Positions 2,735-29,479 are shown, counted from the stretch's first letter. The stretch: DNA of 32,000 nt from Xanthomonas campestris pv. campestris str. ATCC 33913 (GCF_000007145.1 NC_003902.1:1297436-1329435), one strand, 5' to 3'. The notes: generated by a model from the sequence alone, not told the origin. A program made the numbers and translations.

Positions 2735-3988
2735 ATGACCCCGACCACGCCCTCCACCCGTCGCATGGCGCTGCTGCTCGCCGGCCTGGCGATGTTCGGC
2801 CCGTTTTCCATCGACACCATCTTCCCGGCGTTCTCCCAGCTCAGCCGCAGCCTGGCGGTGGACGAGGTGGCGATCCAGCAGACCATCAGCGTGTATCTGC
2901 TGGCCTACGGGCTGATGAGCATCGCGCACGGGCCGCTCTCCGACGCCTGGGGCCGCAAGCGGGTGATCCTGGGCGGGTTGGTGCTGTTCATCGCCGGCAC
3001 CATTGGCTGCGCGTTGTCGCGCGATCTGCCGACGCTGCTGGCCTTCCGCGCGCTGCAGGGCTTGTCGGCCGGCGTGGGCATGATCGTGGGGCGCGCGGTC
3101 ATCCGCGACCTGTTCCAGGGCCACGACGCGCAGCGCCTGATGAGCCAGGTGTCGATGATCTTCGGCATCGCCCCGGCGATCGCGCCGATCATCGGCGGCT
3201 GGATCCTGCTCAGCGGCGCCGGCTGGCCGCTGATCTTCTGGTTCCTGGCGGTGTTCGGGCTGGTGCTGCTGATCGCCACGGTGACCTGGCTGCCGGAAAC
3301 CCACCCGGTGGAGGCGCGCACGCCGCTGCAGCTGCGCCGCCTGCTGCATGACTACGTGCGGATCGGCTTCAACCCACGTTTCCAGCGCCTGGCCGCGGCC
3401 GGTGCGTTCAACTTCGCCGGCATCTTTTTGTACATCGCCTCGGCGCCGGTGCTGGTGATGCGCCACCTGCACCTGGGCGAGGGCGATTTCGCCTGGTTGT
3501 TCATTCCCACCATTGGCGGCATGACCCTGGGGTCGTTCCTGTCCGGGCGCATGGCCGGGCGGATGGATCCGGTGCGGCAGGTGCGCATCGGTTTCATCTA
3601 CTGCGGTGTGGCGGCGCTGGTCAACCTTGGCTATACGCTGGCGGTGGCGCAGATCAGCCTGCCGTGGGCGGTGCTGCCGATCTTCCTGGCCGGGCTGGGC
3701 ATGGCGCTGATCTTCCCGATCCTGGCGCTGGCGGTGCTGGACATGTACCCGCAGCAGCGCGGCCTGGCGTCCTCGCTGCAGGCCTTCACCCAGCTGATGA
3801 CCAATACCGTGGTGGCCGGGGTGCTGTCGCCGCTGCTGAGTGAACACCCGCGGCATCTGGCGTTCGGCATGACCGGCTTTTTCTTGCTGGGCTGGCTATT
3901 CTGGCGCTGGGAGCGCCGCAGCGGCCGCCGCTTGCGGCGCCGCCAGGCTGCCGAGGCACTGCCTCTGGAGCCGGCCGACCACCTTTGA
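2735..3988 (+). CDS. bcr: MFS transporter, Bcr/CflA drug-resistance efflux subfamily
   Basis: ORF 2369..3988. The membrane-protein part starts at in-frame ATG 2735 (MTPTTPSTRRMALLLAGLAMFGPFSIDTIFPAF...). It has about 12 hydrophobic helices and the MFS motif GPLSDAWGRKRV. The upstream 122 codons are Pro/Arg/Ala-rich and overlap the riboswitch and promoter region. Confidence 0.85.
   Translation: MTPTTPSTRRMALLLAGLAMFGPFSIDTIFPAFSQLSRSLAVDEVAIQQTISVYLLAYGLMSIAHGPLSDAWGRKRVILGGLVLFIAGTIGCALSRDLPTLLAFRALQGLSAGVGMIVGRAVIRDLFQGHDAQRLMSQVSMIFGIAPAIAPIIGGWILLSGAGWPLIFWFLAVFGLVLLIATVTWLPETHPVEARTPLQLRRLLHDYVRIGFNPRFQRLAAAGAFNFAGIFLYIASAPVLVMRHLHLGEGDFAWLFIPTIGGMTLGSFLSGRMAGRMDPVRQVRIGFIYCGVAALVNLGYTLAVAQISLPWAVLPIFLAGLGMALIFPILALAVLDMYPQQRGLASSLQAFTQLMTNTVVAGVLSPLLSEHPRHLAFGMTGFFLLGWLFWRWERRSGRRLRRRQAAEALPLEPADHL
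3668..3771. repeat. inverted-repeat arm 1 (104 bp, inside the MFS gene)
   Basis: Checked base by base: the reverse complement of 3668-3771 is identical to 4357-4460. It encodes ...LPIFLAGLGMALIFPILALAVLDMYPQQRGLAS of the transporter. Confidence 0.95.
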
Positions 3989-4004
3989 CCCCACAGGAGC
4001 CTGC

Positions 4005-4559
4005 ATGTCCACCGATTCCAAGCTGCGCCGCGATGCCCGCAAGCGGGCCACCGAGCGCGCGCGCAACCAGGCCGCTGCCAACCCCGCGCCGGTCTCGCCG
4101 ATCGAACCGCATGCCGAACTGCGCGACCAGCAACGCACGCTGCTGGCCGGCATCGTGCGCCGCGACGGCGAGTGGGTGCTGGGCATGGATGGCCGCATCG
4201 CCGGCGAAAGCACCAGCGCCGCGCAGGTGCTGGCCCTGATCATGCGAGCGGCCGAACTGCACGAACGCCAGGGCACCCCCGTGCGGCTGACCTATTCGGA
4301 CGCCCTCAAGGACGCCGCGCACGCCGAGGCCGCTGCGGACGGCATGGAATTCGAGCGACGCCAGGCCGCGCTGCTGCGGGTACATGTCCAGCACCGCCAG
4401 CGCCAGGATCGGGAAGATCAGCGCCATGCCCAGCCCGGCCAGGAAGATCGGCAGCACCGCTCCTACGACAGCCCAGCAACTGCCGAAGGGTCGCTACATC
4501 GCTGCCCTTGCGATCCAGCAAAGGCAGCGTCGCAGGCGTGGCCACGACGCTGCCACTGA
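4005..4559 (+). CDS. hypothetical protein (184 aa); the C-terminal third is chimeric with inverted-repeat arm 2
   Basis: AGGAG at 3995-3999 lies 5 nt before ATG 4005. The N-terminal 117 aa look protein-like (MSTDSKLRRDARKRATERARNQ...GEWVLGMDGRIAGESTSAAQVLALIMRAAELHERQGTPVRLTYSDALKD). Residues about 118-152 (QAALLRVHVQHRQRQDREDQRHAQPGQEDRQH) are the antisense reading of MFS helix-coding DNA. Confidence 0.5.
   Translation: MSTDSKLRRDARKRATERARNQAAANPAPVSPIEPHAELRDQQRTLLAGIVRRDGEWVLGMDGRIAGESTSAAQVLALIMRAAELHERQGTPVRLTYSDALKDAAHAEAAADGMEFERRQAALLRVHVQHRQRQDREDQRHAQPGQEDRQHRSYDSPATAEGSLHRCPCDPAKAASQAWPRRCH
4357..4460. repeat. inverted-repeat arm 2 (104 bp, perfect reverse complement of 3668-3771)
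   Basis: Identical to the reverse complement of arm 1. The spacer between arms is 585 bp (3772-4356). Confidence 0.95.
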
Positions 4560-4573
4560 ACCGGCTAACGCAG

Positions 4574-6505
4574 TCAACGCGCCTGCGACTGCCGCACCGA
4601 CTCCTGCTGCGTTGCCTGCTCCAATGCGGCAGCATCGCGCTCGGGCGACGGTCCCAATGCCTGCAAGCGCTGCAGGCTGGCTTCCACCGGCGCTTCCTGC
4701 GCCGCCTTGGCGTCGAAGCTGCCGCGCAGGTGCGCCGGTGAATCGAGCGCGCCCTGGACCACGAAGCCGCGGGCCGGGTCGTTCCCGAGCAGCACGTGGT
4801 CGACGCGCTGTAGCCCATGCTCACGCGCGGCCACCAGCGATCCCAGTGCCAGACGCTCGCTGTCCATGCCCGGCGTGGGGCCATGCGCGCCTTCCAGTCG
4901 CCCTACGGCGGCGGTGCATTGCTGCAGCAGCCCATGGTCCGGATGCGCAGGGTCGCGCGGATCAGGCACTGCCGCGGTTGCGGCCGCCGGGCGCGGTGCC
5001 ACATCGGCGTCGATGCGTTGCAGCCGGCCGTCGAACTGGCCGTCGGCGCCGTCTGCGATGCGTTGCAGGCGCTCGGCAAAGGCCGCAGGCTGCCCGCCCA
5101 CATTGCGCGCCAGCGCGATGGCGAATTGCTCGGTGTCGGATGCCTGGCCGTTGCCGACCAGTAGTGCCAACGGGCTCGCGCCGATCTTGTTGGCCGTGGC
5201 GGCGGTCTGGGTCTGCTGCAGCAACGCCTGCATCTGCTGCTCGTTGAACACCAGCGTGGTTTTCTGCCCGGCTTGAATTGCGCCTGTGCCCGCCATGTCG
5301 CCGCTGATCGCGCTATTGAGCGATTGCGCCATGGCTTTTTCTTCGCTGGCCTCGTTGCGGCCGCCCAGGCGTTGCATCAGCCCAGGGGTGGCAACGTCGC
5401 CGTCGATTTCGAAACGGTAGCTGCGCTCCTGCACGCGTTCGACATTGTTGCCGTCGTAGTGGCGCAGCACTGTCAGTGGCACGTTATCGCCGTATTTCAG
5501 CTGCTGCAGCACGGCGTAGTCGTCCTGGCCGGGTTCGCTGATGCGGATCTGGCTACCTTCATTGCGGGTGCCCCCCAGATCGGCGTCGAGCGGGCCCAGT
5601 TGCAACTGCATGCGCTGCTGCGAACTGAAACCGATCCGCTCCAGCGTCTGGATCTGATCCACGCCGGGCGTGCCGGGCGCAACCTCGCCCGTGCGCGCGA
5701 ACGCCGTCATGGCGTCGACGGCGCGTGGATCGGCCAGGTCGAACTGCGCGCTCTGCACACGTGAAGTGCCAAGGCGGTCGGTGCGGCCAACCAGGGCCTG
5801 CGCGGGGCCGGCCTTGAGTCCGATCGCATTGGCCGCTTCGATGGCGTCGTTGGGGCCGGTGGCCACGCGCACGTGGCGCTCGTCCACGCGTTCGATCAGA
5901 TAACTGCGGCCGCTGGCTTCGGTGATCTTGCTCTGCATCGCAACCTGTTGCAGGTCCGCCTTGACCTCGCGCTGTGCGAAGGCCTGGCTATCGAGCACCG
6001 CACGAGCGCCCACCGGCAAGCTCTCCGGTTGTAGCGGGTTCACCTGCGTGGCTGCGTCCAGTGATTGATCGGCGCCAGGCAGCGTCAGCGTGTAGCGCAT
6101 GCGCTGGCCGGCGGCCACGCCGGCTTCCAGGTTCAACGTGCCGCTGCCGAGTTTGGTCTGTCGGCTTTGCTGCAAGCCGGTCTGCGCGTCTGCTTCCAGG
6201 CTGAAGGTGGTGGTCTTTGCATCGGCATCGCTGACCACGCCCAGGCTCTGCGAGCTGGCGCTGCGCAGGCTGGTTTCGCCCAGCGGCTGCGTCGCACTGC
6301 CGCTGCTCTGCTGCGTGCTCTGCGTGTGCTTGACCGACTGTTCGCCGGGGTTGAGACCCAGGCTGCGGCCACCCGGCCCGTTGGCCGCGAATTCGGTGCC
6401 AGTGCTGCCGTAGGTTGGATCAAACGCGCCCTGCTGCGCGTCTGCAATGATCTGTGCATCGCGATCCGCATCGTGCGGACCCGGGCCAGTGGAGGCCTGG
6501 TTCAT
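4574..6505 (-). CDS. large hypothetical protein with an XVIPCD-like C-terminal domain; candidate X-T4SS-secreted effector (X-Tfe-like), N-terminal function unknown
   Basis: AAGGAG lies 7 nt upstream of ATG 6505. The C-terminal ~130 aa (RDPAHPDHGLLQQ...SERLALGSLVAAREHGLQRVDHVLLGNDPARGFVVQG...PVEASLQRLQ...QATQQESVRQSQ) align motif by motif with the C-terminus of the 27525..28625 protein. They also match my recollection of XVIPCD motifs (HP.H.L..Q, S..LA, G..R.D.V.L, F.VQG, P.E.S.Q, Gln-rich tail). There is no signal peptide. I do not recognise any family in the N-terminal ~480 aa. Confidence 0.6.
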   Translation of the reverse strand: MNQASTGPGPHDADRDAQIIADAQQGAFDPTYGSTGTEFAANGPGGRSLGLNPGEQSVKHTQSTQQSSGSATQPLGETSLRSASSQSLGVVSDADAKTTTFSLEADAQTGLQQSRQTKLGSGTLNLEAGVAAGQRMRYTLTLPGADQSLDAATQVNPLQPESLPVGARAVLDSQAFAQREVKADLQQVAMQSKITEASGRSYLIERVDERHVRVATGPNDAIEAANAIGLKAGPAQALVGRTDRLGTSRVQSAQFDLADPRAVDAMTAFARTGEVAPGTPGVDQIQTLERIGFSSQQRMQLQLGPLDADLGGTRNEGSQIRISEPGQDDYAVLQQLKYGDNVPLTVLRHYDGNNVERVQERSYRFEIDGDVATPGLMQRLGGRNEASEEKAMAQSLNSAISGDMAGTGAIQAGQKTTLVFNEQQMQALLQQTQTAATANKIGASPLALLVGNGQASDTEQFAIALARNVGGQPAAFAERLQRIADGADGQFDGRLQRIDADVAPRPAAATAAVPDPRDPAHPDHGLLQQCTAAVGRLEGAHGPTPGMDSERLALGSLVAAREHGLQRVDHVLLGNDPARGFVVQGALDSPAHLRGSFDAKAAQEAPVEASLQRLQALGPSPERDAAALEQATQQESVRQSQAR

Positions 6506-6634: not shown

Positions 6635-8653
6635 TCAGCGCGCGGAAGGCGCCGGCGTTGCCGGCGGCGTTGCAGTGGCCCCCTTGGCCTGCCACCCGCA
6701 CATCTGGCCCTGGTTCTGCTGTTTGAGCCATTCCTGCATCGGTGCGAAATATTCCAGCATCGGGCCGGCATCGAGCGTGTCCTTGCCGGTCACTTCCTTC
6801 AGCGTGGTCTGCCAGGGCTGGCTGGAGCCGCGTTGCAACATCGACCAGAATTTCTGGCCGGCTTCCTTGTTGCCGTAGAAGCTGCATTCGTACAGCGGCC
6901 CCTGGTGGCCGGCGGCATCGCACAGGCCCTTGTAGAACTGGAATTGCAGGATGTGCGCGAGAAAATAACGGGTGTAGGGCGTGTTGCCGGGCACGTGGTA
7001 TTTGGCGCCGGCATCGAAGAAGTCCTCGCCGCGTGGGCTCACCGGTGCCACGCCCTGGTAGGTGGCCTTCAACTCCCACCAGGCCTGGTTGTAGCGTTCC
7101 GGGGGAATCGAGCCGTCGAATACGCCCCAGCGCCAGCGGTCGATCATCAGCCCGAACGGCAGAAACGCCACCTTGCTCAGCGCCATGCGCATCTGCGAAT
7201 TGATCAATGCCTCGCGCCCGCTCTGCTGCTCGCCAACCATGCCGATCGACTGCAGGTACTTGGGGGTCATCGCCAGCACGATGGTGTCGCCGATGGCTTC
7301 GTGGAAGCCGTCGTTGGCGCCGTTCTGGAACAGCGGCGGCAACGGGTTGTAGGCCATGTCGTAATAGATGTGGCCAAGCTCATGGTAGATGGTGGTGAAG
7401 TCTTCTTCGGTGGGGCGGATGCACATCTTGGTGCGCACGTCCGGGCCGATGCCCGCGTTCGGCTCGCCACCCATGTTCATGTCCCACGCGCTGGCGTGGC
7501 AGACCACGTCGCGGTCCAGTGGCTTGATGAACTGCGAGCGTTGCCAATAGGTGTCCGGCAACTTCGGCATGCCCAGCGACGTGTAGAAATCCTGCGCGCG
7601 TTCGGTCATCTGCTGGGCAGTGCGCAGTTGCGCGTCGCGCTCGGCGAGGAAGCGTGCAGCTGCGCCGCCATCGCCACCGGTGTTGCGCGCCAGCACGGCG
7701 CTCAGGTTGCCCTGGTACTGTTTTTCCAGCGCCGAGGTGATGTCCAGGTCGCCCGCACCGGGATAGGGCTGCAGCAGATCCCACAGGTTGCTCCAGTCCT
7801 GCTGCCACATGTTGCCCATCAGGTGCGCGGGCAGCATGCCGCCGGCCACCTCGCCCTTGTCCTTGCCGTACTGCGTGTCCAGCTTGCCGCGCGCGTAGCA
7901 TTGCAGCTGGGTGTACAGCGGTTTGAGCTGTTCCCAAAGGCGGTCGGTTTCGCTGGCCAATTGCGCCGGCGGCATGTCGTAGCCGCTGCGCCACATCGCA
8001 CCGACATCGGCAAAGCCCATGCCGCGTGCACCGTCATTGGCGAGCTCGACAAAGCGCTGGTAGTCCTTGCGCATGGGTTGCGCGGTGGCGTGCCAGCCTT
8101 GCCAGGCTTGCAGTTGTTCGTCGTAGTCGCGGCTGCGTGCCAGCACTTGTTCGAGCTCGCCCAGCTGGCGGCAACGGCGTTGCTCGCCTTCACCGGTGCA
8201 GGCGCTGCCCGCGCCGTAGTCGCCTTCCATCTTCGCGGCGATACGCGTGAGTTCGGCCAGCTTGGTCGGGTCGCGCGGGGCGGGCAGGGCGCTCATCAGC
8301 TTGAGTAATTGCAGCGCACGCGCGCTGTCGGCGGACATCGGGGTGCCGGCGTACTGCTTGGATTGGTCGATCCAGCGATCCAGCTGGCTCAGCGCGCGCT
8401 CGTTGGCCTTGGCCGCCAGCAACTGCGAGTCGCCGTTGATGTAGGTCGACGACAGCCACTGCGCGGCAGTCATTTCCGGATACGCCGCCTTGTATTCGGC
8501 ACTGATGCGCGCCACGAACTGGTCGGCGCTTTCGCTGGGTGCGGTTTTGGTGGTGGCGGGCTTGGGCGTCGGCACCGCATCCTGGCGGCACGACGACAGC
8601 GACAACGTACCGGCGGCAACGGCGAGCGCCAGCAACAGCAGACGAGGATTCAC
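6635..8653 (-). CDS. peptidyl-dipeptidase A, M2 family (angiotensin-converting-enzyme homologue), lipoprotein
   Basis: GTG start at 8653 with AAGGA upstream. The signal peptide carries a lipobox (LSLSSC). The zinc site is HELGH ... HEAIGD. Length and overall pattern are typical of bacterial ACE-like M2 peptidases known from Xanthomonas. Confidence 0.9.
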   Translation of the reverse strand: MNPRLLLLALAVAAGTLSLSSCRQDAVPTPKPATTKTAPSESADQFVARISAEYKAAYPEMTAAQWLSSTYINGDSQLLAAKANERALSQLDRWIDQSKQYAGTPMSADSARALQLLKLMSALPAPRDPTKLAELTRIAAKMEGDYGAGSACTGEGEQRRCRQLGELEQVLARSRDYDEQLQAWQGWHATAQPMRKDYQRFVELANDGARGMGFADVGAMWRSGYDMPPAQLASETDRLWEQLKPLYTQLQCYARGKLDTQYGKDKGEVAGGMLPAHLMGNMWQQDWSNLWDLLQPYPGAGDLDITSALEKQYQGNLSAVLARNTGGDGGAAARFLAERDAQLRTAQQMTERAQDFYTSLGMPKLPDTYWQRSQFIKPLDRDVVCHASAWDMNMGGEPNAGIGPDVRTKMCIRPTEEDFTTIYHELGHIYYDMAYNPLPPLFQNGANDGFHEAIGDTIVLAMTPKYLQSIGMVGEQQSGREALINSQMRMALSKVAFLPFGLMIDRWRWGVFDGSIPPERYNQAWWELKATYQGVAPVSPRGEDFFDAGAKYHVPGNTPYTRYFLAHILQFQFYKGLCDAAGHQGPLYECSFYGNKEAGQKFWSMLQRGSSQPWQTTLKEVTGKDTLDAGPMLEYFAPMQEWLKQQNQGQMCGWQAKGATATPPATPAPSAR

Positions 8654-24836: not shown

Positions 24837-25943
24837 TCAATAGAGCGAGCCGGTGTTGACCACCGGTTGGGTGCCGCGATCAGAACACAACACGGTAAGC
24901 AGGTTGCTGACCATATGCGCCTTGCGCTCTTCGTCCAACTGCACCACGCCGTTTTTCTGCAACTCGGCCAGTGCCATCTCCACCATCCCCACGGCGCCGG
25001 CCACGATGCGCGAGCGTGCGGCAATCACCGCATTGGCCTGCTGACGCTGCAGCATGGCCTGGGCGATTTCCGGTGCGTAGGCGAGGTGGCTGATGCGCGC
25101 CTCGATCACGTCCACGCCGGCCTGGGTCAGGCGCTCGTCCAGATGCCGCTTGAGTTGTTCGCTGATCTCGGCCGGGTGGCTGCGCAGCGAAATCTGGCCT
25201 TCCTCATGCTGGTCGTACGGATAGCTGGTGGCCATCGCGCGCAACGCGGCTTCGGACTGGATGTGCACGAAGCTTTCGTAGTCGTCCACGTTGTACACCG
25301 CCTCAGAAGCATCCATCACCTGCCACACGATCACGGCCGCGATCTCGATCGGGCTGCCGTCGAGTTCATTGACCTTGAGCCGGCCGCTTTCGAAATTACG
25401 CACGCGCTGGCTGATCCGCTTCTTTGCATACTGGTCGTACGGATAGCTGGTGGCCATCGCGCGCAACGCGGCTTCGGACTGGATGTGCACGAAGCTTTCG
25501 TAGTCGTCCACGTTGTACACCGCCTCAGAAGCATCCATCACCTGCCACACGATCACGGCCGCGATCTCGATCGGGCTGCCGTCGAGTTCATTGACCTTGA
25601 GCCGGCCGCTTTCGAAATTACGCACGCGCTGGCTGATCCGCTTCTTTGCATAGAAGGGGCTGTTCCAGCGCAGGCCTGGGTCCTTCACGGTGCCGACGTA
25701 CTTGCCGAACAGGCTCAGCACCGCGGCCTGATTCGGTTCCAGGGTGTACAGGCCGGCGAAGAAAAAGATCCCGACCACCACGACTGCGAGCGCCGCGATG
25801 AAGCTGGCCGGCGTGATGCTCGCGGCGGAAATTGCACTGAGCAAATACCAGGACATGCCCGCGAACGCGGCGCCCACGGCAAGGATGATGGGGATGCCTG
25901 CCAACGAGCCGATCGGCTTCTCTTTCATGAGGAGGGAGTCCAT
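24837..25943 (-). CDS. SPFH/Band-7 (stomatin/flotillin-like) domain membrane protein carrying an internal 74-aa duplication
   Basis: N-terminal TM helices are followed by the SPFH core ([30 protein letters not shown]...[24 protein letters not shown]). The start is uncertain: ATG 25943 is chosen, with TTG 25967 and ATG 25928 as alternatives. Confidence 0.8.
25209..25652. repeat. perfect 222-bp direct tandem duplication (2 copies) inside the SPFH CDS
   Basis: 25209-25430 and 25431-25652 are identical on base-by-base comparison. The duplication is in frame and repeats [74 protein letters not shown]. Confidence 0.95.
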
Positions 25944-25959
25944 GTGGGTTCGTGAGAAA

Positions 25960-25976
25960 GATATCAAAGTGATATC
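25960..25976. promoter_or_regulatory. candidate operator: perfect inverted repeat GATATCA-N3-TGATATC
   Basis: It sits in the only AT-rich patch of the SPFH/purT divergent intergenic region, 17 bp upstream of ATG 25943. Function is inferred only. Confidence 0.3.
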
Positions 25977-27259: not shown

Positions 27260-27524
27260 ATAACGTAGTTCTTGCGGGGCCTTGTGGGCATCGGCTTGAC
27301 CGTTGCCCACGATTTTCAAGACTGCCTTGCTTTCAGCTGGCGAGATTGGCATGCAGCCAACGTGCAGCAATCTCGAAACATTGCTTCGTGAACCATGGTG
27401 GCTACACCCGCATTACATCCGTTGCGGGTGAGACCAAACCACTGTCAGACAGTGATCTGATAGGCATCCGTCTGCTCCATCGAAGGCGTAGGACGCAGGG
27501 GGCATGTAAGTCGAACTGCAAGTT

Positions 27525-28625
27525 TCAGGTCAAGGCCCTTGCAGGGTGTGGTTGGCTCTGCTCTTGCTGTATCTGCCTTTGCTGTTCGCCGTGCGCGCGT
27601 TCTGCCGCAGCCTGGACCCAGTTCTGACTGCTTTGCTCCAGCGGTGTATTGAGTGCAACGACAGTATCCACATGGGCACGCAACTGGTCATGCGGTCCCA
27701 GTGAGTTGGGATTGTTCTGTACCGCAAACGCATGTGAGGCGTCCTCGCTTAGACGAACGTCGTCGATGCGGTTCATGCCCATTTTGCAGGATTGCACCGC
27801 CAGGCAACCAGCCAGGTTGTCGCTGCGCGCATCCGATTGCCGGTTGTTTGCCTGATCCAAAGCTTGCACATGGGTCTGTGCCTGGGCGAACAGCGTGTGC
27901 CCAGGATGATCGGGATTACGGAGTGACGGCAGTTGCTGCTGATCGCTCAAGAGATGTTGTTGGATCGATCTGTCTGCCGGAAGCGGATGCCGAACTTCTT
28001 TGTTCAGCGGGCTTTGCGGAAACGGTGCCTCAATGCTTTCCACGCCATGAATATTGCGCAAGGGGCGGTAAGCATCTTTCCCCGAGCCTTCAACCGGCAA
28101 AGGGATGCGAACGTCCGGAAGCAGTTGTCCGACTCCGCCAGGCCCAAGCAATCCATTCACATCAATGCTCTTGTTGCGATGGAGCCCGGCATGATTGAGT
28201 GCAGCCCAGGTAAAGTCGACACAGTTGTTGTGCACGTCCCTGTACTCTTTGTCGAACCCCAGTTTTTCCGGCTCTTCACCGAATTTTTGCAGTTTTTCAT
28301 ACTGCTCTTTGCTTATTTCAATCGTTCTGGAATAGGCAGGGTTATGGTATTCCTTAGCGTCTGAGTTATAGATTTTTCCTGGTCCGTTCATCTCGCCGTG
28401 CGTGATGGGAGCAAATCCATAACTAATCGGTTTGCTCTTGCTATCGTCAAGTATAAAAAACATGTGCCCTGGCCCGGAATTGGCCGGTTCGCCATCTATA
28501 ACCTGCTGTTCGCCGTTTTTATATAGCGGGGTGCCAGGCGCCGCGATAACAATCGTTACGGTGTATTGCTGCTTATCCATCTCTTGCTCCATGTGAGATC
28601 TCGAGGCTATTTCGAGGAAGTCCAT
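27525..28625 (-). CDS. candidate X-T4SS antibacterial effector (X-Tfe-like): N-terminal His/Cys putative hydrolase domain plus C-terminal XVIPCD
   Basis: C-terminus: RNPDHPGHTLFAQAQTHVQALDQ...SDNLAGCLAVQSCKMGMNRIDDVRLSEDASHAFAVQN...LNTPLEQSSQNWVQ...GEQQRQIQQEQSQ. N-terminus: GPGHMFFIL ... ITHGE ... HNNCVDFTWAAL. Possible starts are 28625, 28592 and 28580; 28580 has GGAG 6 nt upstream. Confidence 0.65.
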   Translation of the reverse strand: MDFLEIASRSHMEQEMDKQQYTVTIVIAAPGTPLYKNGEQQVIDGEPANSGPGHMFFILDDSKSKPISYGFAPITHGEMNGPGKIYNSDAKEYHNPAYSRTIEISKEQYEKLQKFGEEPEKLGFDKEYRDVHNNCVDFTWAALNHAGLHRNKSIDVNGLLGPGGVGQLLPDVRIPLPVEGSGKDAYRPLRNIHGVESIEAPFPQSPLNKEVRHPLPADRSIQQHLLSDQQQLPSLRNPDHPGHTLFAQAQTHVQALDQANNRQSDARSDNLAGCLAVQSCKMGMNRIDDVRLSEDASHAFAVQNNPNSLGPHDQLRAHVDTVVALNTPLEQSSQNWVQAAAERAHGEQQRQIQQEQSQPHPARALT

Positions 28626-29221
28626 CTCTTTTGAATGGAAACCTGTGCAGTGGGGTCTTTCAATGTTGGATTGCTTGGCTGTGTGGAGATGTCAATGCGG
28701 TAGCGGCCGTAACTTTCTAGAGGTAGGTTGCATACAACCCAGTCACTTGAGTTTGAAGTATGGGCTCCGATGTCGATGTATTTTACTTCATCTTTTCCCT
28801 TTCTCCAGTCGAAAAATTTTTTTCTGCTGGGTTCCTCCCTCATATATTCTTGAAATGCATCTTCTGTTTTTATTTCTAAGCATCGGTCTCCCACCCACTT
28901 GCATGCCTCAACTTTAAGCGCATATCGCACGGGCGATTCGCTTTTGTTTAACATCGTGACTGGGTCGATAGATCCCTTGCGACTTAGTGTCAACCCGACG
29001 ATATAGGGCTGCGTAAGGTTCACGTTGTCCGGTGTGGCTTCGAATTCAAAGCGCACATGTTCGTCCGTGGCATCCACGCGAAATGGTTGACTGAGAAAAA
29101 GATCTTGTTTCTCGGACTGCGGCGCTTTGCTTGCACCACAGGCAGCCAGCATCGTAGCGATCACGATTGATGACCACAAACCCCGCATGCGGGAACGCAT
29201 ATCCTGCAAATTTGGTCTCAT
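28607..29221 (-). CDS. lipoprotein, candidate cognate immunity protein (X-Tfi-like)
   Basis: The signal peptide has a lipobox (SSIVIATMLAAC-GASK). The gene lies immediately upstream of the effector candidate and overlaps its longest ORF by 19 nt. GC is low. I do not recognise a family. Confidence 0.55.
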   Translation of the reverse strand: MRPNLQDMRSRMRGLWSSIVIATMLAACGASKAPQSEKQDLFLSQPFRVDATDEHVRFEFEATPDNVNLTQPYIVGLTLSRKGSIDPVTMLNKSESPVRYALKVEACKWVGDRCLEIKTEDAFQEYMREEPSRKKFFDWRKGKDEVKYIDIGAHTSNSSDWVVCNLPLESYGRYRIDISTQPSNPTLKDPTAQVSIQKRWTSSK

Positions 29222-29479
29222 CCGGTTCTCATTGCAGACAGGATTGCGTCAGAGTGTAACCCGCGATCTGAAGCCGACTAGGCCTGCCTTGTGTATAAAG
29301 GGATGAGGTGATGCCTGGCGCCTGTAAAAGCTGAAATACCGAGCTTCGTTACTGCTGGCTGGCAGGCGGCAAACCACCAGCCAGCTTGTTGCCACTATCG
29401 GCCCGGGCGGGCGAGCGAGCGGGCGCCGCCTGCCGTCGCCGGGCGTCATTCATAAAATCTCTCGGGTGCTGGTAGGCCC

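Follow-up and report, generated by a model that had tools for sequence, protein, structure and literature searches.

Within a 32,000-nt stretch of Xanthomonas campestris pv. campestris ATCC 33913 DNA (NC_003902.1:1297436-1329435; hereafter the window), positions 27260-29479 form an islet bounded by purT and by an endonuclease/exonuclease/phosphatase (EEP) gene. This islet is filled by two minus-strand open reading frames (ORFs), which in their longest forms extend over 27525..28625 (366 amino acids, aa) and 28607..29221 (204 aa). The upstream frame encodes a predicted lipoprotein, and the downstream frame a protein with an XVIPCD, the domain recognised by the VirD4 coupling protein of the bacteria-killing type IV secretion system of Xanthomonadales (X-T4SS). 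Based on domain content, gene order and co-inheritance, we consider it very probable that the islet represents a two-gene module of a candidate X-T4SS effector (X-Tfe) and its candidate immunity protein (X-Tfi), as had been proposed in a sequence-only reading of this DNA.

The islet stands out from its surroundings in base composition. Its content of guanine plus cytosine (GC) is 0.528, compared to 0.665 in the remaining window, and between the purT stop codon (27259) and the EEP stop codon (29480) local GC dips to 0.455-0.57, with flanks at 0.65-0.70. Relative to 2220-nt segments outside the islet (mean 0.665, standard deviation 0.018, minimum 0.627), this corresponds to a z-score of -7.75. 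The same trend was observed at third codon positions (GC3), with values of 0.58 for the effector gene and 0.51 for the lipoprotein gene, compared to 0.75-0.88 for the other measured genes of the window. Both windowed GC and GC3 therefore bear out the low-GC islet described in the sequence-only reading.

That reading had also described an overlap of 19 nt between the two frames in their longest forms. While both frames are present, the overlap is probably an artefact of choosing the longest ORF for the effector gene. All homologues begin at a methionine matching residue 16 of the long form (MDKQQYTV...), and the database protein P0001 ("XVIPCD domain-containing protein", X. campestris pv. campestris), which is 100% identical to the effector, is 351 aa long. 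Likewise, the effector gene is called with 351 aa in X. campestris pv. campestris genomes (ten contexts; one exception, CP066992.1, with 323 aa), and a GGAG precedes the ATG at 28580. These homologue starts, database and gene calls and the GGAG led us to reject the overlap; the actual arrangement is a 26-nt spacer between the genes, typical for a bicistronic pair. Transcription is presumed to come from a promoter in the non-coding region upstream of the lipoprotein gene or from read-through out of the EEP gene into the pair. A scan of this region (29222..29479) for the sigma-70 consensus gave no match, and a promoter and terminator scan of the flanking intergenic regions yielded nothing exceeding chance. 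The two hairpins in the convergent region downstream of the effector gene have a fold z-score of -1.28, which is not significant, and a terminator is not established there. The coordinates of all features are compiled in Table 1.

Table 1. Features of the islet (window positions) and, in the last line, effector relatives at other loci in which Pfam detects no XVIPCD.
Feature	Position	Strand	Details
Convergent intergenic region, purT stop to effector stop	27260..27524		GC 0.54; two hairpins on minus-strand RNA
Effector gene (candidate X-Tfe)	27525..28580	-	351 aa plus stop; start at 28580 preferred over the longest-ORF start at 28625
Gln-rich C-terminal tail	27528..27614	-	QAAAERAHGEQQRQIQQEQSQPHPARALT; 8 Gln in 29 residues
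XVIPCD, VirD4-recognition domain	27615..27920	-	residues 221-322 of the 351-aa form (236-337 of the long form)
Conserved extension of the putative toxin domain	27945..28169	-	residues 138-212; 'GK..RP.RN' and 'P.P.S.LN' motifs
Core of the putative toxin domain	28170..28580	-	residues 1-137; contains the four candidate catalytic residues
Asp122	28215-28217	-	candidate catalytic residue
Cys120	28221-28223	-	candidate catalytic residue
Asn118	28227-28229	-	candidate catalytic residue
His39	28464-28466	-	candidate catalytic residue
Intergenic spacer, 26 nt	28581..28606	-	Shine-Dalgarno GGAG (28587-28590), 6 nt upstream of the effector ATG
Lipoprotein gene (candidate X-Tfi)	28607..29221	-	204 aa; signal peptide; L-A-A-C lipobox; Cys28 at 29138-29140
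Non-coding region, EEP stop to lipoprotein start	29222..29479	-	GC 0.61
XVIPCD-less effector relatives	L037 6001-6858; L040 857-1687; L051 6001-6822; L054 5959-6837; L056 5926-6834; L057 5950-6834; L065 5950-6831

The XVIPCD of the downstream protein is genuine. The Pfam family PF20410 (X-Tfes_XVIPCD) matches the effector along its full length (positions 1-100 of the 101-position model) with 93.2 bits, far above the gathering score of 24.9 (E = 1.6e-26). In a phmmer search against the PDB, the effector matched 7r6s, 9p3h, and 7mu9, all via its C-terminus; 7r6s is a Stenotrophomonas maltophilia protein (TfcB) and 7mu9 the solution structure of the XVIPCD of XAC2609. Foldseek searches with an AlphaFold2 model of the 351-aa effector (mean pLDDT 82) retrieved two of the same structures, 7r6s at E = 1.9e-9 and 7mu9 at E = 4.3e-5. 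The XVIPCD motifs GLxRIDHV and FAVQGxxDPAHxRAHV take the forms 'GMNRIDDV' and 'FAVQNNPNSLGPHDQLRAHV' in the effector. Behind the domain lies a Gln-rich tail, as has been described for XVIPCD proteins (PMC10432156), and the effector resembles XAC2609 of the XAC2609/XAC2610 pair of Xanthomonas citri and TfcB of S. maltophilia in both XVIPCD and tail. In addition, a second XVIPCD protein is encoded in the window (4574..6505; PF20410 full-length, 85.7 bits, E = 3.6e-24), and the C-termini of the two proteins share 31% identity over 131 aa (BLASTP, E = 4e-8). The C-terminal similarity to this protein and the Gln-rich tail, both noticed in the sequence-only reading, are hence substantiated.

Residues 1 to ~212 of the effector gave no Pfam, NCBIfam or PDB sequence match, neither as a single protein nor as a profile (A2), in agreement with the earlier failure to place the toxin domain in a characterised X-Tfe class. 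A profile search of 1.84 billion representative proteins nevertheless recovered 675 relatives at E <= 0.001, including 115 with E <= 1e-30. Residue conservation was counted in 119 representatives of 50%-identity clusters covering the domain core, among them proteins of the RTX type. Conservation reached 98% for each of His39, Cys120, and Asp122 and 91% for Asn118; the complete set of positions conserved at 91-100% comprises Ser35, Gly38, His39, Gly55, Phe56, Pro58, Gly68, Tyr78, Tyr113, Asn118, Cys120, Asp122, and Leu128. In the AlphaFold2 model, His39 begins a beta-strand and Cys120 opens a helix (residues 120-130). The near-invariance of His39, Asn118, Cys120, and Asp122 indicates that the N-terminal domain is likely a Cys/His enzyme. 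The extension that follows the core contains the invariant residues G149, K168, P173, N176, I183, P186, S190, L192, N193, and P201 (alignment A1). It is absent from the RTX-type relatives, whose match stops near profile position 137.

The spacing of the conserved residues is reminiscent of permuted NlpC/P60 proteins (LRAT/PLAAT, H-box/NC). In both, a His lies on a strand ('GHMFY' in the window protein, 'HWAIY' in the permuted family), the next strand carries a related motif ('GFAP' versus 'HLAP'), and an Asn-x-Cys marks a helix start ~80 residues further on ('NNCVDF' versus 'ENCEHF'). In contrast to PLAAT enzymes, the window domain has no second His. NlpC/P60-type amidase effectors of type VI secretion are comparable in having a periplasmic immunity partner. 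Membership in the permuted NlpC/P60 family is not statistically supported, as no significant sequence, profile or structural similarity was found, leaving a resemblance at the level of motifs. The toxin domain may have a papain-like fold and an envelope substrate. Further candidates were dismissed: a lysostaphin match to the N-terminal domain (E = 0.007) is due to low complexity, and Foldseek matches to TRAPP Bet3 and MopR in the PDB have an rmsd of 14-15 A. Foldseek comparison of the effector model with a viral library returned uncharacterised proteins only.

The upstream protein begins with MRPNLQDMRSRMRGLWSSIVIATMLAAC, which combines a positively charged start, a hydrophobic core and a lipobox ('...IATMLAAC'). 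The lipobox noticed in the sequence-only reading was confirmed as L-A-A-C ending at Cys28, and a lipobox-like motif is found in 56 of 63 homologues encoded upstream of effector relatives. No internal start near the mature N-terminus was found that could give rise to a cytosolic form. By itself, the lipoprotein had no Pfam, NCBIfam or PDB sequence match, and its close homologues fall into eight clusters, exclusively from Xanthomonas. The mature part was predicted to form a beta-sandwich (AlphaFold2; mean pLDDT 76.6, pTM 0.70), for which 3nkg of Sulfurospirillum deleyianum was the best and sole significant PDB match in Foldseek (E = 6e-4, TM 0.43-0.50). Two Xanthomonas orthologues bear the UniRef name 'DUF5625 domain-containing protein'. 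The same structure was the best match (E = 0.0011) for a profile of four DUF5625 proteins that are encoded next to RTX-type relatives of the toxin domain, and the two families have a C-terminal 'pG.Y.l.v ... GK' motif in common. A direct comparison of the lipoprotein profile with these four proteins gave no match. The lipoprotein thus appears to be a remote DUF5625/3NKG-like protein, linked to that family only by profile-profile and fold comparison.

To examine how the two genes are inherited, one genome per species was scanned with a profile of the effector N-terminal domain, resulting in 69 tabulated loci. These belong to Xanthomonadales (Xanthomonas, Stenotrophomonas, Pseudoxanthomonas, Luteimonas, Rhodanobacter, Dyella, Luteibacter) and Betaproteobacteria (Variovorax, Hydromonas, Formosimonas, Brachymonas, Neisseria), a range of genera that agrees with the published list of X-T4SS carriers (PMC6536674). 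An iterated lipoprotein profile detected a lipoprotein homologue directly upstream of the effector relative and on the same strand at 63 of the 69 loci, with a gap of mostly 3-43 nt. Together with the XVIPCD, this co-inheritance largely supports the effector/immunity pair of the sequence-only reading, whereas its horizontal acquisition calls for qualification. Comparison of the Xanthomonas orthologues revealed 58-75% identity for the lipoprotein, 77-93% for the effector N-terminal domain, 83-87% for the EEP protein and 95-96% for PurT. The lipoprotein is therefore the fastest-changing of these proteins, as expected of an immunity protein. At 60 of the 63 loci, GC of the cassette was lower than in the flanks (mean deficit 0.053 for the effector gene and 0.068 for the lipoprotein gene), indicating that low GC is a trait of the cassette wherever it is located.

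The loci also differ in the number of pairs and in the C-terminal region of the effector relatives. Many Stenotrophomonas loci contain two to four pairs in tandem. A convergent ORF of ~138 aa that consists of an XVIPCD only lies directly downstream of the effector relative in Stenotrophomonas locus L007 (7129-7545, minus strand), and the same position is occupied by such an ORF in L009, L010, L012, L015-L018, L045, and L049; these ORFs may be orphan XVIPCD genes or remnants. Some Stenotrophomonas effector paralogues (e.g. P0332, P0334, P0336, P0337) are labelled 'hemolysin' in GenBank, a label that was probably carried over from the similarity of their N-terminal domain to RTX proteins. Relatives without a Pfam XVIPCD are found in Variovorax, Luteibacter, Luteimonas, and Pseudoxanthomonas. 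They end with a shorter conserved segment, 'PF(D/E)DPVL(D/E)QL..AL..GDS..LD.IG..F..S.EG', followed by a Gln-rich tail, and this segment may be an alternative or a very divergent secretion signal.

Part of the relatives of the toxin domain are much longer proteins, in which the domain core is located at the extreme N-terminus and RTX nonapeptide repeats lie downstream. Residues 172-343 of one of them, P0237, correspond to the self-processing module of FrpC (PDB 6sjw and 6sjx, E = 6e-51), a Neisseria meningitidis protein with which these RTX relatives share this type of module. The module starts at the Asp-Pro site 'DPLVLDLDGDGIET', and an Asp-Pro site follows the toxin domain in nine of the relatives examined. 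In all four RTX-type loci with genomic context, a PF18539 (DUF5625) gene ends 9-19 nt upstream, and three of the four encoded DUF5625 proteins have a lipobox. One of these four loci also encodes parts of a type I secretion system, namely a C39-peptidase ABC exporter and a membrane fusion protein. In L070 (3171-3524) and L071 (3098-3454), the DUF5625 gene is directly preceded by a conserved ORF of ~117 aa without a Pfam match, which may be a third operon member in RTX-type loci. In the metagenomic protein P0232 (L073, 74-1627), the toxin core (residues 17-155) is followed by a Phage_GPD (VgrG-like) domain, a domain order that hints at a connection with type VI secretion, too.

These observations suggest that toxin domain and lipoprotein partner travel as a cassette independent of the delivery route, be it X-T4SS or type I secretion. 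A further-reaching reading, which has an even chance of being right, holds that this is an undescribed toxin/immunity cassette used with different export routes, being fused either to an XVIPCD for contact-dependent delivery by an X-T4SS or to an FrpC-type Asp-Pro module and RTX repeats for type I secretion. The shorter C-terminal signal of the Luteimonas, Luteibacter, and Variovorax relatives is possibly a third such fusion. If this were true, a class of 'clip-and-link' RTX proteins would act as antibacterial toxins that free their N-terminal payload by calcium-triggered self-cleavage, and DUF5625, for which no mention and hence no function was found in the literature searched, would gain its first function, as an immunity protein. 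An antibacterial role was raised earlier by Bayer-Santos et al., who proposed FrpC/FrpD of N. meningitidis as an antibacterial pair on different evidence (PMC6759196).

While the foreign composition of the islet, and nothing else, backs the horizontal acquisition proposed in the sequence-only reading, the pair is not a recent arrival. Six other Xanthomonas genomes (Xanthomonas sp. 3075, X. euvesicatoria, X. prunicola, X. hortorum pv. hederae, X. codiaei, X. floridensis) also have it between purT and the EEP gene, as do 10 of 10 distinct contexts from X. campestris pv. campestris with an identical PurT. No presence/absence polymorphism was found among the six species and ten contexts, a comparison that could not include a search for an empty site. 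The islet showed no tRNA, flanking repeats were short and at chance level, and the copy in the window contained no mobility gene or transposase. The shared site and the absence of mobility hallmarks imply that any transfer must be old; the pair is an old, fixed and compositionally foreign resident of the clade, rather than a recent island.

The arrangement of the pair corresponds to that of established X-Tfe/X-Tfi modules. X-Tfi genes lie upstream of the X-Tfe gene, close to it or overlapping with it, and many encode periplasmic lipoproteins (PMC7777525). Like these pairs, the module in the window has its lipoprotein gene right next to the effector gene, upstream and on the same strand, and the range of its family is that of X-T4SS carriers. 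In contrast, its N-terminal domain has no relationship to the domains of characterised X-Tfes, which are peptidoglycan hydrolases, lipases, and nucleases, and its lipoprotein belongs to a DUF5625-like family that differs from characterised X-Tfis. The type of module is already known, and its toxin and antidote families are uncharacterised. A related case may exist in S. maltophilia K279a, where the pairs Smlt0502/Smlt0503 and Smlt0505/Smlt0506 are clustered, of unknown function and without an immunity counterpart in X. citri; a two-hybrid assay detected VirD4 binding for Smlt0505 and not for Smlt0502 (PMC11253643). Their clustering fits the tandem Stenotrophomonas pairs of the window family, to which they probably belong; a check of cluster membership brought up no K279a entry for Smlt0502 or Smlt0505.

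If the islet is an X-T4SS effector/immunity module, VirD4 would recognise the 351-aa effector through its C-terminal XVIPCD, and the effector would be injected on cell contact into rival Gram-negative bacteria. The N-terminal domain of ~140-210 aa would then act as a toxin, probably as a Cys/His-dependent enzyme (His39, Cys120, Asp122) with a putative permuted papain-like or NlpC-P60-like fold, and its target would be part of the envelope, for example peptidoglycan or phospholipids of the membrane. In turn, the 204-aa lipoprotein, a predicted beta-sandwich anchored on the periplasmic side, would bind and block the toxin domain, thereby protecting the producer and its sister cells.

Several results weigh against this picture, some of them against its molecular details and others against an active module in X. 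campestris pv. campestris. Regarding the XVIPCD, F-A-V of the VirD4-contact residues, taken as named in a preprint, is kept, whereas the Asp before the conserved Pro is absent ('LGPHD' in the effector, 'LGDPA' in 7r6s). As to the lipoprotein, Pfam DUF5625 (PF18539) matched neither the window protein nor P0122, P0124, and P0128 at E <= 10, and the hhalign comparison of the lipoprotein family with DUF5625, at 96% probability and E = 3.6e-9, covers only the last 38 columns. For the toxin domain, the best Foldseek matches outside the XVIPCD were weak, with human NTAQ1, an N-terminal glutamine amidase, at E = 0.1-0.2 and the H-box/NC protein 2A of Aichivirus at E = 1.3 (probability 0.25, target TM 0.48). 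Similarly, hhalign of the 11- and 119-sequence profiles to PLAAT3 (query sequence identical to PDB 4fa0) gave a probability of 0.2-0.5%, although the NC motifs align.

Alternatively, the N-terminal domain may not be an envelope hydrolase: it could act through binding, or inside the cytoplasm, and bring about stasis instead of lysis, as put forward for the X-Tfe Smlt3024, with Cys and His being structural or serving other chemistry such as deamidation or transglutamination. Smlt3024 has an N-terminal region like those of RTX proteins and acts from the periplasm to slow growth, through a mechanism that has not been worked out, and its immunity protein Smlt3025 adopts an FrpD-like fold (PMC6759196). 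Such a mode of action would also be in line with a glutamine amidase as the best structural neighbour, weak as it is, and with the lack of a significant link to any hydrolase family. However, the Smlt3024 family model (NCBIfam NF050128) reached 38.5 bits at a cut-off of 800 and aligned over model positions 307-431, the XVIPCD, only; likewise, PDB 9p3h, considered as a homologue of the N-terminal domain, aligned over the XVIPCD only. No FrpD or Smlt3025 entry was among the 50 Foldseek PDB matches listed for the lipoprotein model, and the window family is parallel to but distinct from Smlt3024/Smlt3025 and FrpC/FrpD. Moreover, conservation of a His and Asn-x-Cys-x-Asp set at 91-98% across 119 divergent sequences is characteristic of catalytic residues, and a cytoplasmic target fits poorly with a lipoprotein that has no internal start for a cytosolic form. 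We therefore regard a non-hydrolytic domain as unlikely, though deserving of attention, and retain an envelope-directed Cys/His enzyme as the preferred reading of the toxin domain.

A different concern arises from variation among X. campestris pv. campestris strains, which would be explained if the pair were a decaying or silent relic, either because the X-T4SS is fragmented or because the operon is not expressed. In CP066992.1 (L079), a 1-nt insertion disrupts the effector gene, leaving the lipoprotein frame intact. In CP066990.1, an IS3-family insertion sequence (IS) element (L084, 7626-8847) replaces the equivalent of window positions 28682-29234; nearly the whole lipoprotein gene, the presumed immunity gene, has thereby been lost naturally, with the effector gene left intact. 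Two further contexts carry a DDE-type IS element between purT and the effector gene (L081, 6228-7595; L083, 6354-7691). These IS and frameshift variants imply that the module is not indispensable; it may be dispensable or silent, or may lack self-toxicity. At least one strain tolerates losing the lipoprotein, possibly because the IS element removes the promoter as well. In addition, no virB or virD4 gene lies within the 32-kb window, and although an X-T4SS is listed for X. campestris pv. campestris B100, 8004, and ATCC 33913, its locus is fragmented in the latter two (PMC6536674). The lack of a recognisable consensus promoter upstream of the pair points in the same direction. In contrast, both frames are intact in the window and in 7 of the 10 contexts, and the islet is 100% identical to that of the window in L075, L081, and L083, that is, also in the two contexts with an adjoining IS element. 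Furthermore, the six other Xanthomonas species have kept the pair at its site without change in any invariant residue, and the X-T4SS locus of B100 is reported to be contiguous (PMC6536674). This renders a relic rather improbable.

Finally, that the lipoprotein serves as an accessory factor (chaperone, adaptor or activator) for export or maturation of the effector, instead of conferring immunity, is highly improbable: strict co-inheritance shows a functional link of unspecified kind and one strain that retains the effector gene lives without that for the lipoprotein, but Sec/Lol export places the lipoprotein across the inner membrane from substrates of VirD4 or a type I system and precludes a cytoplasmic escort, the same partner occurs under two unrelated export routes, the lipoprotein diverges faster than the effector, and an upstream lipoprotein gene is the established X-Tfi position.

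As an effector/immunity module, the pair would enlarge the X-T4SS arsenal of an important crop pathogen by a probable weapon and its antidote. Beyond that, it brings to light an uncharacterised, probable Cys/His toxin domain with a short list of residues for mutation (His39, Cys120, Asp122), a candidate function for DUF5625 and a cassette common to FrpC-type RTX proteins. The latter provides a concrete and testable reason to suspect that some type I-secreted RTX proteins are antibacterial toxins with lipoprotein immunity.

Two other genes of the window deserve mention. The second XVIPCD gene (4574-6505, minus strand) encodes a 643-aa protein and is of native composition (GC 0.68, GC3 0.80). 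The N-terminal 516 residues of its product had no Pfam match. Its upstream gene (6635..8653) is a Peptidase_M2 homologue and no lipoprotein gene lies upstream; a nearby minus-strand ORF (3786..4457), considered as an immunity gene, looks like a non-coding frame and was rejected. The SPFH/Band_7 gene at 24837..25967 (minus strand) contains a 222-nt tandem duplication (25205-25652; 2.0 copies, 99% match), which is in frame and adds 74 residues. The SPFH protein has 289 aa in other X. campestris pv. campestris genomes, and the duplicated form of 363 aa is also found in L083 (CP101174.1).

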